Shown: piece after piece, positions 34,374 to 39,092 of the stretch
Position numbering within the stretch: position 1 is the stretch's first letter
Layout: every line of letters begins with the position of its first letter
Source of the DNA: Acidobacteriota bacterium
Lineage (GTDB): Bacteria > Acidobacteriota > Vicinamibacteria > Vicinamibacterales > UBA2999
Direction of reading: 5' to 3'
Length of the DNA: 64,000 nt
Assembly (NCBI GenBank): GCA_013140775.1
Contig: JABFSA010000003.1
Location: forward strand, 12,704 to 76,703
Made by a program: the position numbers and the translations under genes
The notes under the pieces: model-generated
What the model was told of the DNA's origin: nothing
Databases searched by the model: none
What the model saw: only the letters and a program-made list of their open reading frames with translations

Positions 34374-34471
34374 GCCCAACGGTCGCGGCTCACTTGCGGC
34401 GGCCGCACACCGTCGTGTCGAATTGCCCGCATCCTACCGCGGCCGCCGTCAAGTGCAGCCGCTTGTTAGAC
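34374..34471 (-). other. Integron attC site (attC2, 98 bp)
   Basis: Minus strand begins GTCTAAC (R'') and ends GTTGGGC (R'). The plus (bottom) strand folds gcggct|cacttg|cggcggccgc against gcggccgccg-T-caagtg-C-agccgc with two extrahelical bases. Confidence 0.92.
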
Positions 34472-34498
34472 GGCGCGGCTCCCTTGTACAGTGAGGCC

Positions 34499-34693
34499 AT
34501 GAAAGTAGCCTTCGATCTGCCCCCTGCACAAGCGGAAAAGCTGAAGCAGGAAGCGTCGCGCTTGGGCTTGAGCCCTGATGACCTTGCCCGAGCGGCCCTC
34601 GCTGACCTCCTGGCCGGGTACGACGACGATTTTCGCGCCGCGGCGGACCGGGTGCTTGAAAAGAACCGGGAGCTGTACCGCCGTCTCGCGTGA
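34499..34693 (+). CDS. Antitoxin partner of Doc (small, probably ribbon-helix-helix-like)
   Basis: 64 aa, MKVAFDLP...DDDFRAAADRVLEKNRELYRRLA; stop overlaps the doc start; TACAGT -10 six nt before ATG. Confidence 0.8.
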   Translation: MKVAFDLPPAQAEKLKQEASRLGLSPDDLARAALADLLAGYDDDFRAAADRVLEKNRELYRRLA

Positions 34694-35079
34694 TGCGCTA
34701 CCTCACCCTGGGCGAGGTGGTGGACTTGCACGACCGGGTCCTCGAACAATCTGGAGGGGCCGCTGGCATTCGAGACCTCGGCTTACTCGAGTCGGCACTC
34801 GCCCAACCGAAGGCGACATTCGACGGGAATGATCTGCACCCTACTTTGATAGACAAGACAGCGGCCCTCGGGTACTCCCTTGTAGCGAACCATCCCTTTG
34901 TGGATGGCAACAAGCGCATCGGGCACGCTGCGATGGCGACGTTCTTGTTGCTCAACGGCCTGGAGATCGAAGCACCGGTCGATGCCCAAGAGCGATTGAT
35001 GTTGGATCTCGCCGCTGGCGGCACGACTCGCTCAGTCCTGGCCGCATGGCTCGCTAGCCACACCCAACCCACCAGATAG
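34690..35079 (+). CDS. doc: Death-on-curing (Doc/Fic) family toxin
   Basis: GIRDLGLLESALAQP and Fic motif HPFVDGNKRIG. Confidence 0.92.
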   Translation: MMRYLTLGEVVDLHDRVLEQSGGAAGIRDLGLLESALAQPKATFDGNDLHPTLIDKTAALGYSLVANHPFVDGNKRIGHAAMATFLLLNGLEIEAPVDAQERLMLDLAAGGTTRSVLAAWLASHTQPTR

Positions 35080-35135
35080 TTTCGGCCTCGTTCCGTTGAT
35101 GCGACAAGCCTTCGGCCTCTATCGACCCTGGAACG

Positions 35136-35888
35136 TTACGCGTTCTTGAACGCCTCGAAGCGGAGGCGAGTGTAATCTGCCGTCCAGACACCATCTGCAC
35201 CGCAGAGCAAGGGCCTTAGCCGATCACGTACATCGTCAAGGTACTTCTGACGGTCACCAGACGGCAGTACGGACACAAAACTACCGGCGAACGTCTCGAG
35301 AAAACCAGACATGTCACCGGGCAAAGGCGTCGGACGACGGATAATTTCAATGTACGCTACGGCAAATCCCGCCTTCGCCAAGCGGCTTCCGTAATCCGCG
35401 GTGGTTGCAAAGTACCACGGGTTTGCGGCCCAGCCGTCGTAGCCGCGTCTCTCAAGCTCCGTCACGAGCGCCGTCTGAATCGTCTGGCAGCACTTGTCGC
35501 CGCCGCATTCCGCAACGAAACGCCCTCCGGGGCGGAGCGCGCTAAACACGTTACGAATCACACGATCGGCGTCCTTCAGCCAGTGCAACACGGCATTGCT
35601 AAACACGGCATCGAACTCCTCGCGGAAATCGATCTCGTACGCATTCTGGACCGAGACGTTGAGCGCCAACCCCAGGGCAGCCTGGATCAGCTCGGGACTG
35701 GAATCGATGCCGACCACTTCGCAGCCGCCGTCCTGCAACCTCTTGGTGAGCACGCCATCGCCGCACCCAAGATCAAGGATGCGTTCACCCGGCTTAGCGT
35801 TGAGGAGCTCGACCACGGGCATGCCCAGGTCGCTGACGAACCGCGCGTTCTTGTCGTAGCCTTCGGCGCACCACGTCTGCTCCGTCAT
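35136..35888 (-). CDS. Class I SAM-dependent methyltransferase (cassette gene)
   Basis: ILDLGCGDG, FDAVFSNAVLHW and LRPGGRFVAE motifs. Confidence 0.9.
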   Translation of the reverse strand: MTEQTWCAEGYDKNARFVSDLGMPVVELLNAKPGERILDLGCGDGVLTKRLQDGGCEVVGIDSSPELIQAALGLALNVSVQNAYEIDFREEFDAVFSNAVLHWLKDADRVIRNVFSALRPGGRFVAECGGDKCCQTIQTALVTELERRGYDGWAANPWYFATTADYGSRLAKAGFAVAYIEIIRRPTPLPGDMSGFLETFAGSFVSVLPSGDRQKYLDDVRDRLRPLLCGADGVWTADYTRLRFEAFKNA

Positions 35889-35913
35889 TGCGTCATCCAG
35901 GCCAAGTCCGTCT

Positions 35914-37256
35914 AGACAGAATGACTTCCGCGACAGGCTGACCCCCGGTTGTCTCGCGGGTTAGCCTGTTGGCCAGAGCCGCATCGCTGCAGGTCCGCAG
36001 CGCAGTGTTCCCGGAGGTCAGCCATGGCGAAGTCTACACCGCTGTACGTCGGGTTGGATGTGCACAAGGAATCGATTGCCGTCGCGCATGCGACGGGTGG
36101 GCGAGCGGATCCACCCGTGTTCGTCGGCGCGATCGGGACACGCCAAGCCGACCTCGATCGGCTGATTCGACGCTTGCAGGGGAAGGCCCCCGAGCTGCGA
36201 TTCGTGTACGAAGCCGGCCCGTGTGGCTACACGCTGTATCGCTATCTCACGAAGAAGGGGCTGGCGTGTGACGTCGTGGCGCCGTCCCTGATCCCGCGGC
36301 GGCCGGGTGACAAGGTGAAGACCGACCGGCGTGATGCCGTCGAGCTCGCGCGGCTGCGGCGGTCCGGGGACCTCACCGCGGTCTACGTGCCGTCGGTGGA
36401 GGATGAAGCGATCCGCGATCTCTGCCGAGCTCGTGATACGGCGCGAGTCACGCTCAAAGATGCGAAGCTCCGGCTCAAGGCATTCCTGCTGCGTCTCGGG
36501 CTCCACTACGTGGGACGGGCCGATTGGAATGCGGCGCACCAGCGCTACCTGGCGAAGGTCGTCTGTCCCACGCCGGCGCAGCAGGTCGTCTTCCAAGAAG
36601 GCGTACGCGCCGTCGATGAGCAGGTCGAGCGGCTGCAGCGGATCGAAGCCGAGCTGCGGGACCTCGCGCCCCACTGGCGGCGCTATCCGCTCGTCGAGGC
36701 GTTACAAGCGCTGCGTGGCGTCCAGTGGGTCGTCGCCCTGACCGTGGTCGCCGAACTCGGCGACCTGACGCGCTTCGAGCATCCCCGACAGCTCGCGGCG
36801 TTCGTGGGCCTCGTGCCCTCGGAGTACTCCAGTGGCTCGACGCGTCGGCAGGGCGGCATCACCAAAGCCGGCAACGGCCGCGCGCGCCGCGTGCTGGTCG
36901 AAGCCGCGGGGGCGTATCGTCATCCCGCGAAGGTGTCACTGCATATTCAACAGCGGATCGATCAGCTCCCGAAGGCCCTGCAAGACCTCGGCTGGAAAGC
37001 GCAGGTGCGGTTGTGCAAGCGCTTTCGGCGGCTGGTCGCGCGGGGCAAGCATCCGAACGTCGTCGTCACGGCGATCGCGCGTGAGCTGATCGCCTTCATG
37101 TGGGCCATCGCGCGCGCGATGCCCACGCGCGCGTAAACCTCGCCAGGGGCGGAGGCGGGACGTGGACCACCGATACAGGCGTCATTCCTCGGCGTCCCGC
37201 TCAGTCGCCTGCGCGGCAGGGAGAACTGCGTCCCACTTGACTCGAGAAGTCATATC
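35914..37256 (+). mobile_element. IS110-family insertion sequence inserted in the attC1 R' core
   Basis: Sub-terminal 8-bp inverted repeats ATGACTTC (35921-35928, 7 nt from the left end) and GAAGTCAT (37246-37253, 3 nt from the right end). Deleting the element restores CCGTCTAAC. Boundary is ambiguous by one A. Confidence 0.82.
36024..37136 (+). CDS. IS110-family transposase/recombinase
   Basis: [17 protein letters not shown] and KTDRRDA (DEDD RuvC-like); [10 protein letters not shown] (catalytic Ser loop); [15 protein letters not shown]. Confidence 0.95.
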
Positions 37257-37333
37257 AACGGTCGCGATGAGCTGCGCCGTCGCAGGGACGCGAGAGCGGC
37301 CAAAGTGACGTCAGCTCCATCGCGGGGTTAGGC
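37253..37333 (-). other. Integron attC site (attC1), R' interrupted after GTT by IS110
   Basis: Minus strand GCCTAAC (37333-37327) ... GTT (37259-37257). The plus strand folds cgcgat|gagctg|cg against cg-T-cagctc-C-atcgcg with two extrahelical bases. Shares AACGGTCGCG with attC2. Confidence 0.9.
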
Positions 37334-37911: not shown

Positions 37912-37954
37912 GACCGCATTCTAGCGTCGTCTACTTCTGTCCTGCGCCGAAGAT

Positions 37955-37961
37955 GCCTAAC
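37955..37961 (-). other. attI recombination core (G/TTAGGC) opening cassette 1
   Basis: GTTAGGC on the minus strand is the exact complement of attC1 R'' GCCTAAC, as expected for an integrated cassette; no attC-type hairpin upstream of it. Confidence 0.7.
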
Positions 37962-38007
37962 GAGTAGTCGGCTGAACTCGGTAGCCGGATACTCGAATAA
38001 CGGCTGC

Positions 38008-38036
38008 AGTGTAGCGGACCGACCACTGGCATTCAA
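38008..38036 (-). promoter_or_regulatory. Cassette promoter (Pc-like)
   Basis: Minus strand TTGAAT (38036-38031)-N17-TACACT (38013-38008), pointing at the attI core 47 nt downstream. Confidence 0.7.
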
Positions 38037-38131
38037 TCTGTCCGGAACATGCTGACTGGACAGCCTGATCCGCCGTGCCTTGGAGGAACGAACGGGCCTG
38101 GTTGAACGGGATAGGCAGAACAAGATAGCGC

Positions 38132-38160
38132 AATACGCCAGCGAGGCTTCGTGGCGTATT
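38132..38160 (-). terminator. Hairpin immediately after the intI stop (possible terminator)
   Basis: AATACGCCA(G)CGA-GGCT-TCGTGGCGTATT stem with one bulge; weak U-tract. Confidence 0.45.
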
Positions 38161-38164
38161 CGGC

Positions 38165-39092
38165 TCATCGAGGCTTCGACTCTGGGCTGGTCGTGGCGCG
38201 CACCGCGTCCAGCGGGCTCCGGACGCCCCGGCCACCCTGGTTGAGGACGTGGGTGTAGATCATTGTCGTGCTCACGTCACGGTGTCCCAACAGTTCCTGG
38301 ATGGTCCTGATGTCGTACCCGGCCTCCAGGAGATGGGTAGCGAACGAGTGACGGAGAGAATGGCACGTCGCGGGTCGGGGAATGGCGGCCGCCCGTGCGG
38401 CGTCCTTCACAGCCCGCTGGAGCACCGACTCGTGCAGGTGATGACGCCTCCGCTCGCCGGTCGCCCGATCGACATAGAAGCGCGTGGCGGGGAATACCCA
38501 TTGCCACGCCCATTCGCGAGGCGCGTTGGGGTACTTCGCCCTGAGCGCGCCAGGGAGCGCGACGCTGCCGCGCCCGGCAGCGAGGTCTGCGTCGTGCTGG
38601 GCCTTCACCCGCGTCAAATGGTCCACGAGGGCCGACTTGATCGTGGCCGGCAGCATGGTCACGCGGTCCTTGCCGCCCTTGCCATCTCGAATCGCGAGTT
38701 CGCCGCGGTCGAAGTTGATGTCCTTGACGCGTAGCTCTGCGCACTCGAGGAGCCTCAGACCGGCACCGTACATGAGCGAGGCCATCAGCCAGACGGGACC
38801 ACGGAGCCGCGAGAGAAGCGATCCCACCTCGTCGCGCGAGAGCACCACGGGCAGACGCACGGGTCGTTGCGCTCGGACAATCTCGTGCATCCAGGTGAGT
38901 CGAGTGCCCAGCACGGCGTCGCACAGCGCTTCGGCCGCCGACAGAGCGATCCATCTGACGCGGCCGTGTGGGACCGTCGGTCCGGAGCAAGACCGTGGCA
39001 AGCGTATTGGCGCAGCGTGTGGGTCGGTGGCGAATGCTGAGGTGATCGGATCGGATCAGGTCGGTCTTGCGGAGCGACCGATGGTCCCTCAC
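38165..39092 (-). pseudogene. intI: Integron integrase with an intact catalytic domain but a decayed, frameshifted N-terminal domain
   Basis: [25 protein letters not shown], the integron-specific insert [35 protein letters not shown] and TTMIYTHV are intact. The N-terminal remnant (IRSDHLSIR...PRQMD) is in another frame and the ...STQNQ segment is missing. Confidence 0.8.

Follow-up and report, generated by a model that had tools for sequence, protein, structure and literature searches.

Integrons with an inverted integrase gene are represented in Treponema denticola, Chlorobi, Planctomycetes and cyanobacteria. PMC3575428 and PMC13323075 trace the inverted integrase group to Boucher et al. 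2007, and PMC3575428 counts it among three recognised groups of the integrase IntI. IntIs of the inverted kind make up a sub-clade of a soil/freshwater clade, a model of attC sites specific to Acidobacteria exists (PMC8352920), and IntegronFinder-based work on Acidobacteriota-rich soils takes the inverted type as a standard class (PMC13323075). Pseudogenes account for about one third of intI genes (PMC2426708), and the insertion sequences (ISs) ISKpn4 and ISPst6, members of IS1111, target one end of attC sites (PMC11187229, which cites Tetu & Holmes 2008 and Post & Hall 2009 for this IS1111-attC group). The literature thus already covers inverted integrons and the attCs of Acidobacteria, as well as intI pseudogenes and IS1111 elements that target attC. 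Here we describe a 4.8-kb block at positions 34319–39142 of a 64,000-nucleotide stretch of an Acidobacteriota genome (contig JABFSA010000003.1; the whole stretch is called the window below), located between the convergent 3′ ends of a pfkB gene and an IMP dehydrogenase (IMPDH) gene. The block is very probably a small chromosomal integron of the inverted-integrase type in an acidobacterium of the Vicinamibacterales type, and it is now decaying. The host was assigned from the named relatives of its IMPDH and IntI.

On the minus strand the block reads, in order, intI, a hairpin, promoter-like hexamers, the attI core GTTAGGC, cassette 1, attC1, an IS110-family element, cassette 2 and a terminal attC (Table 1). 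An earlier note made from the letters alone had listed these elements in this minus-strand array order, and all of them were found at or near the positions it gave. It had also presented the locus as an example, in an acidobacterium, of integrons that are little characterised there; the inverted integron in an acidobacterium stands, and the gap was overstated, since both attC models for Acidobacteria and inverted integrons from soil metagenomes have been published (PMC8352920, PMC13323075).

attC sites and the truncated integrase gene

The attC sites were assessed with two covariance models. For R1, five attC hairpins were taken from two other contigs of this genome, C114 and C107, and since its seeds come only from these contigs, the model is independent of the window; R2 is broader and comprises 46 attC sites from many phyla. 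The E-values of both models are rough, because calibration was shortened, and our own energy-based attC finder, which yields many false positives in DNA of 65% GC, was used solely for picking seeds. Over the 64-kb window, two sites are significant with R1, each of them on the minus strand, and the next match has an E-value of 0.023; with filters off, nothing further in 34300–39200 reaches 0.05. The two attCs predicted in the earlier note are therefore recognised by R1 and by R2 alike. A search with filters off for a third attC, in the stretch that separates the methyltransferase gene from doc, was negative, the best other match (12.5 bits) lying inside the methyltransferase gene.

Both sites have an R′′ of the form RYYYAAC, an R′ that begins with GTT, and, on the 5′ (R′′–L′′) arm, G and A as extra bases, as do the other attCs of the genome. 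In attC1, R′′ is GCCTAAC, the stem is imperfect, and the GTT of R′ is followed directly by the end of the IS. In the terminal attC, R′′ is GTCTAAC and R′ is GTTGGGC; this site is 88% identical to one attC of the array at L038, a related locus on metagenome contig k141_2043135. A solitary attC at C56:8987–9084, 38 kb from the window array, is 81% identical to the terminal attC.

The product of the intI open reading frame (ORF) at 38165–39001 scores far above the 265-bit cut-off of the integron integrase profile TIGR02249, so that the identification in the earlier note is correct; the N-terminal ~72 codons, however, are lacking. The product covers only profile positions 66–314 of 315, positions 1–65 being absent, and a profile search did not find the N-terminal domain PF13495 in it. 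In an alignment with IntI relatives of 325–349 amino acids (80–90% identity), homology begins at ‘ALSA’, nucleotide 38947, and the first 18 residues of the 278-amino-acid ORF are unrelated to the relatives and run into a repeat element. When a full-length relative was used as the tblastn query, its residues 73–321 were placed at 38947–38201 with 87% identity; a remnant of residues 1–72 was found neither in the three upstream frames nor by tblastn of the window. A frameshifted gene was thereby ruled out: as the missing ~72 residues occur in no frame, intI is 5′-truncated and not frameshifted. The remaining part is well preserved, with the catalytic-domain motifs and the conserved insert of the IntI-specific additional domain intact and 80–90% identical to relatives. 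Public data hold thousands of IntI relatives at 80–90% identity, several of them named Vicinamibacterales or Acidobacteria, and most are 320–350 amino acids long with a PF13495 domain.

The breakpoint of intI adjoins a 140-nt palindromic repeat, which resembles a miniature inverted-repeat transposable element (MITE) and has 12-bp terminal inverted repeats (CCGTGCGGGACC / GGTCCCGCACGG). There are six full copies of it in the genome, 73–77% identical by blastn and with nhmmer E-values from 1e-34 to 8e-42: one in the window and the others at C56:9713–9851, C56:7926–8062, C180:43782–43924, C12:28506–28643 and C46:46266–46405. The repeat folds as one long hairpin of about −70 to −88 kcal/mol, and no Rfam family matched it.

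A full-length intI with an N-terminal core-binding domain, needed for a complete autonomous integron, is not present here. Tyrosine recombinases need the core-binding domain, as is established for the family. Most likely, then, the truncated gene makes no active recombinase, and the integron is probably not autonomous, because its intI has neither the core-binding N-terminus nor an upstream region of its own. This immediately raises two questions. First, could the array still be served by an integrase encoded elsewhere? Second, could the short ORF itself be a working enzyme?

As regards the first question, two complete intI genes with attC arrays of their own are present in the genome. Contig C114 carries a complete co-oriented integron (intI at 8008–8973, minus strand; attCs at 6560–6629, 5951–6034, 5125–5203, 3514–3589 and 1794–1864), and C107 a complete canonical, i.e. 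divergent, one (intI at 2585–3553, plus strand; attCs at 1003–1082 and 375–458). The attCs of C114 and C107 share one common sequence and structure type with those of the window, and the model built from C114 and C107 finds the window sites. Moreover, IntIs accept diverse attCs, the attI being accepted only by the cognate integrase, according to PMC2095811. The array might thus be passive and mobilisable in trans, its cassettes still being moved at attC and attI by the full-length inverted IntI of C114 and the canonical one of C107. We regard this as unlikely, though worth keeping in mind, given that the C114 IntI is only 64% identical to the window lineage, that the C114 attI region fails to align, and that attC1 has its R′ core broken in two by the IS. 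Two further observations concern the integrons of this genome. The IntI ORF of C107 stays open for ~110 more codons upstream of the match and sits on a very long tree branch. Contig C51 holds a second decayed integron, in which the C-terminal ~84 codons of intI (22660–22902, minus strand) are followed downstream by attCs at 21051–21120 and 19090–19165.

As regards the second question, an intact, autonomous integron would require the 278-amino-acid ORF, read from TTG at 39001, to be a working and naturally short IntI. The frame is indeed open from 39001, and the catalytic-domain motifs and the insert are intact; yet nearly all close relatives on long contigs have 320–350 amino acids and PF13495, the 18 unrelated residues at the start of the ORF continue into the repeat element, and the absent part belongs to the very domain that tyrosine recombinases require, which makes a naturally short enzyme highly improbable. 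A truncated integrase gene in a decaying integron therefore remains the preferred reading.

Orientation of the array and the region downstream of intI

To place the co-oriented arrangement, IntI loci were collected by a scan of one genome per species, which gave 80 loci from many phyla, and 46 loci (close metagenome loci included) had R2 attC matches. In 20 of the 46 the attCs lie downstream of intI on its own strand, and in 26 they lie upstream on the other strand, as in canonical integrons; a single attC site among 157 was oddly placed. Every locus labelled Acidobacteria or Vicinamibacteria that has attC matches is co-oriented, and at L038, L040 and L041 each attC is downstream of intI on the same strand. 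One of the canonical loci, L066 (660–5442, in a metagenome-assembled genome of an uncultured Verrucomicrobiae), carries at least 10 unusually long (~122 nt), uniform attCs at ~500 bp spacing.

A maximum-likelihood tree was computed by a quick method from 86 IntI sequences, which do not include experimentally studied references such as the Treponema IntI. The 22 co-oriented IntIs all fall together in one clade (support 92 in the Shimodaira–Hasegawa-like approximate likelihood ratio test), with 27 canonical ones across that branch, in agreement with the earlier note, which had ascribed the co-oriented arrangement to a separate IntI clade. Orientation needs one change of state on this tree, as low a number as none of 500 label shuffles reached. 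Five sequences from Acidobacteria and metagenomes share with the window IntI a subclade of six that has 100% support. The co-oriented clade takes in Planctomycetia, Omnitrophota and many Acidobacteria, as well as a Chlorobiaceae sequence whose array orientation was not scored. Co-orientation is thus the norm in the IntI lineage of the window.

The sequence downstream of intI was compared by aligning the 370 nt after the intI stop codon from the window and from L038, L040, L041 and L042, which are close loci with a full-length intI. A conserved box is found ~45 nt 3′ of the stop codon. Further on, the hexamers TTGAAT (38036–38031) and TACACT (38013–38008) are separated by a 17-nt spacer, and in all five loci the pattern TTGAAN / TA[CG]ACT recurs at this constant spacing, with a variable spacer sequence. 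A consensus promoter scan of 34300–39200 called no promoter; as the hexamers were missed by it, the cassette promoter (Pc) is inferred from conservation only, and the pair TTGAAT-17-TACACT is a candidate Pc that would read into the array. The conserved stretch of the alignment ends in ...CGACTACTCGTT, and the sequences are unrelated beyond the GTT of the attI core, so that ~200 bp after the intI stop are kept in the four full-length-intI loci right up to this GTT. The core GTTAGGC is complementary to the R′′ GCCTAAC of attC1, which ends cassette 1. Such a pattern would be expected of an attI that has its crossover at G|TT and is followed by a first cassette that differs between loci. At the hairpin position directly after intI, some related loci have an inverted repeat of different sequence; a terminator-like stem called by the scan at 38140–38126 differs from the 38132–38160 hairpin and shares its descending arm only. 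At L038, an IS91-like element (8314–10383) lies directly after intI, at the attI position; it encodes a Y2 transposase and an accessory tyrosine recombinase, and an attC-like match on the opposite strand is found at 10637–10722.

The earlier note had named an unrelated rearrangement of intI and the cassettes as what would refute its reading. In such a case a leftover canonical intI fragment would have chanced beside an integrase-less attC cluster, which is compatible with the removal of the intI 5′ end, where a canonical attI would lie, with the canonical integron on C107 and with the lone attC on C56. It is scarcely conceivable, however, when the 200 bp from the intI stop to the first cassette are conserved with the four full-length-intI loci and end exactly at the GTT crossover, the integrase comes from a clade whose scored arrays are all downstream and co-oriented, and the C107 IntI is only ~51% identical to the window lineage.

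Insertion sequence, cassettes and age of the block

The IS product is a DEDD (RuvC-like) transposase with an IS110/IS1111 C-terminal domain. The earlier note had placed an IS110 element after attC1; the IS is present, and it sits inside the R′ core of attC1. IS DNA with 70–85% identity to it was found in 28 of the 200 other genomes sampled from the order. In the window, and likewise in six further genomes, an attC that R2 calls adjoins the right end of the IS. All seven genomes have identical junctions, attC...GTT|GATATGACTTC...IS...GAAGTCAT(T/A)CTGTC|TAG(A/G/C)C, and from these shared junctions it follows that the original R′ core of attC1 was GTTAGAC, with the IS at GTT|AGAC. Insertion is therefore site- and orientation-specific in attC, at the same R′ core position in seven genomes of the order; the insertion point has a one-base ambiguity and lies 1–2 nt from the IntI crossover (G|TT). 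The left border and the left end of the IS share 9 nt, CGTCTAGAC; this match was rejected, since one of its length is at chance level for 64 kb.

IS1111 elements encode a seekRNA in their 3′ non-coding region. It is in this region that the window copy is shortened: the IS is 1343 bp long compared with ~1520 bp in five other copies (L044, L045, L048, L051 and L053), and the shortfall of ~180 bp is located in the 3′ non-coding region, which has 120 nt here and ~300 nt elsewhere. The window copy may be unable to move by itself. Comparing the 3′ non-coding region with the target by eye gave no convincing match, and an Rfam scan of 33000–40500 gave no attC and no bridge- or seek-RNA family, its single match (33281–33351, E 0.54) being at chance level and outside the block. 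The terminal extensions, 7 bp on the left (AGACAGA) and 3 bp on the right (ATC), are as in the description of IS1111, (PMC11187229), and of the subterminal inverted repeat only 8 bp (ATGACTTC) are perfect, where 11–13 bp would be expected for the family. If the IS ends were joined, they would form a possible circle-junction promoter, TTGACT, 17 nt and CAGAAT. Of 823 records that match the transposase, 822 have less than 60% identity, and among the 15 ranked best no plasmid-borne relative gets as far as 57%. Tentatively, and with somewhat more doubt than confidence, we propose that the IS represents a separate acidobacterial lineage of attC-targeting IS1111-type elements, which would recognise the R′ core and insert at GTT|AGRC, 1–2 nt from the IntI cleavage, and which, together with integrase decay mediated by MITE-like repeats, could regularly serve as a ‘freezer’ for integron arrays in soil.

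The DUF6883/DUF4926 pair of cassette 1 recurs as a cassette at L038 (10761–11338) and L041 (12641–13224) with ~65% nucleotide identity, and it is thus a cassette in three independent arrays of one IntI lineage. The arrays of L038, L040 and L041 carry small cassette-like genes, e.g. DUF6883/DUF4926, HepT/MNT and PemK/MazE. The DUF6883/DUF4926 pair is a candidate toxin–antitoxin or defence module; judged by family annotation it is probably of the addiction type, and the phd-doc pair would likewise be an addiction-type module that helps the block persist. Cassette 2 resumes with AGACGG after the IS, the methyltransferase start codon being 25 nt further on. It contains two opposed transcription units, the methyltransferase gene on one strand and the phd-doc pair on the other, without an attC in between.

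In relatives, the gene order is glyoxalase/MBL, MTAP and pfkB, followed by the convergent IMPDH gene. Among four genomes of the family, the pfkB and IMPDH stop codons lie 22, 187 and 270 bp apart in three and 818 bp apart in the fourth (G009); a genome of the same genus has 1.5 kb of unrelated genes there, without attC. The site is empty, with a 22-bp gap, on a metagenome contig whose IMPDH is 94% identical, and it holds a single acetyltransferase gene on a contig whose IMPDH is 96% identical. Homology with relatives ends exactly at the pfkB and IMPDH stop codons, and no recognisable remains of the 22-bp empty-site spacer are left at the insertion borders. Given the empty site in close strains and homology that ends at the stop codons, the comparison identifies the block as a recent lineage-specific acquisition and not as an old sedentary integron. 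With a GC content of 0.59–0.69, the block is not distinct from its flanks.

Table 1. Features of the integron block and its chromosomal flanks (window coordinates)
Feature	Position	Strand	Evidence or remark
pfkB-family kinase gene, chromosomal flank	33377–34318	+	PF00294, E 1e-40
Terminal attC	34374–34471	-	R1 30.1 bits, E 2e-5; R2 58.8 bits, E 1.5e-10
Cassette 2, ~1.54 kb	34374–35913	-	Methyltransferase, phd-like/doc pair, terminal attC
phd-like gene	34499–34693	+	In cassette 2
doc gene	34690–35079	+	TIGR01550 Doc 51 bits (cut-off 38.65); PF02661 Fic
S-adenosylmethionine (SAM) methyltransferase gene	35136–35888	-	Pfam Methyltransf_11
IS1111-type (IS110-family) insertion sequence, 1343 bp	35914–37256	+	Ends set against copies in other genomes
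IS transposase gene	36024–37136	+	NF033542 250 bits; PF01548, PF02371
attC1	37254–37333	-	R1 39.2 bits, E 9e-8; R2 44.4 bits
Cassette 1	37259–37960	-	DUF6883, DUF4926 and attC1; Pfam, covariance model
DUF4926 gene, overlaps DUF6883 gene	37340–37576	-	PF16277, E 1e-19
DUF6883 gene	37573–37911	-	PF21814, E 7e-29
attI region, ends in core GTTAGGC (37961–37955)	37955–38007	-	Pattern search and conservation
Candidate Pc, TTGAAT-17-TACACT	38008–38036	-	Hexamer conservation; points into array
Hairpin, 9-bp stem and 11-nt loop, directly 3′ of intI stop	38132–38160	-	Read from sequence
ΔintI	38165–38947 (mechanical ORF to TTG at 39001)	-	TIGR02249 353.7 bits
MITE-like palindromic repeat, 140 nt	38955–39099		Adjoins intI breakpoint
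IMP dehydrogenase-like gene, chromosomal flank	39143–40621	-	TIGR01302 379 bits (below 481.5-bit cut-off); PF00478, E 4e-99

Proposed history and comparison with known systems

The features of the block can be put together into a plausible history. In an integron of the inverted type, intI is read towards the array, with the promoter and attI just downstream of its stop codon; the cassettes follow on the intI strand, and each is closed by an attC hairpin, of which the bottom strand is the substrate of IntI. In the ancestral state the promoter presumably transcribed the cassettes, while IntI would have recombined attI with the folded bottom strands of the attCs. Decay would then have come in three forms. 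First, intI has lost ~72 N-terminal codons together with its upstream region, with the MITE-like repeat at the breakpoint. Second, the IS in the R′ core of attC1 would cut cassette 2 off from the promoter, and it should prevent attC1 from serving in normal excision. Third, cassette 2 seems to have come to combine two opposed transcription units that no attC separates. The two full-length IntIs elsewhere in the genome could, speculatively, act on the array in trans at most. The phd-doc pair, with its own promoter on the opposite strand, and perhaps also the DUF6883/DUF4926 pair, may stabilise the block.

Several points weigh against a decaying inverted integron. The array holds two attCs only, and the candidate Pc scores 8/12, under the threshold of the consensus scan. 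The in-frame TTG at 39001 could in principle permit an N-terminally shortened protein. Cassette 2 is unusually long and of mixed orientation, and could be a fused cassette pair or partly non-cassette DNA. Finally, the genome assembly consists of 183 contigs and is 94% complete, and the IMPDH/repeat/intI junction could be an assembly join, against which it counts that the repeat copies are only ~75% alike.

The locus leaves the integron mechanism as it is known unchanged. Its value lies in the careful dissection of one more inverted-type integron, here from the abundant but uncultured soil group Vicinamibacterales, in a genome that presents several integron states at once, namely complete inverted, complete canonical and two decayed. 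It provides useful background on the gain, freezing and loss of soil integrons and for the annotation of attI and Pc in the IntI lineage of the window.

Among the described systems, the inverted-integrase group shares with the window the placement of intI and the attC top strands on one strand, with attI, promoter and array 3′ of intI. The window differs from it in its Vicinamibacterales-type host, its 5′-truncated integrase gene and its tiny array of two attCs. Sedentary chromosomal integrons with toxin–antitoxin cassettes, such as the Vibrio superintegron (PMC13108822), are likewise chromosomal, and the window resembles them in having a Doc/Phd-type pair opposite to the array and a second small two-gene module. 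In contrast to them, it is neither ancestral nor sedentary, and it has two cassettes where they have dozens to hundreds. The intI pseudogenes or ‘pseudo-integrons’ of Nemergut et al. 2008 (PMC2426708) have in the same way had the integrase inactivated by a major deletion and kept the cassettes, whereas the window shows a clean 5′ truncation beside a MITE-like repeat and not an internal stop or frameshift. The IS1111-attC group (ISPa21, ISKpn4 and ISPst6) likewise has a DEDD transposase, 7-bp and 3-bp extensions beyond subterminal repeats (of which only 8 bp are perfect in the window) and orientation-specific insertion at one attC end; the window IS differs from that group in its acidobacterial host and in a 3′ part that is ~180 bp shorter than in the five other copies.

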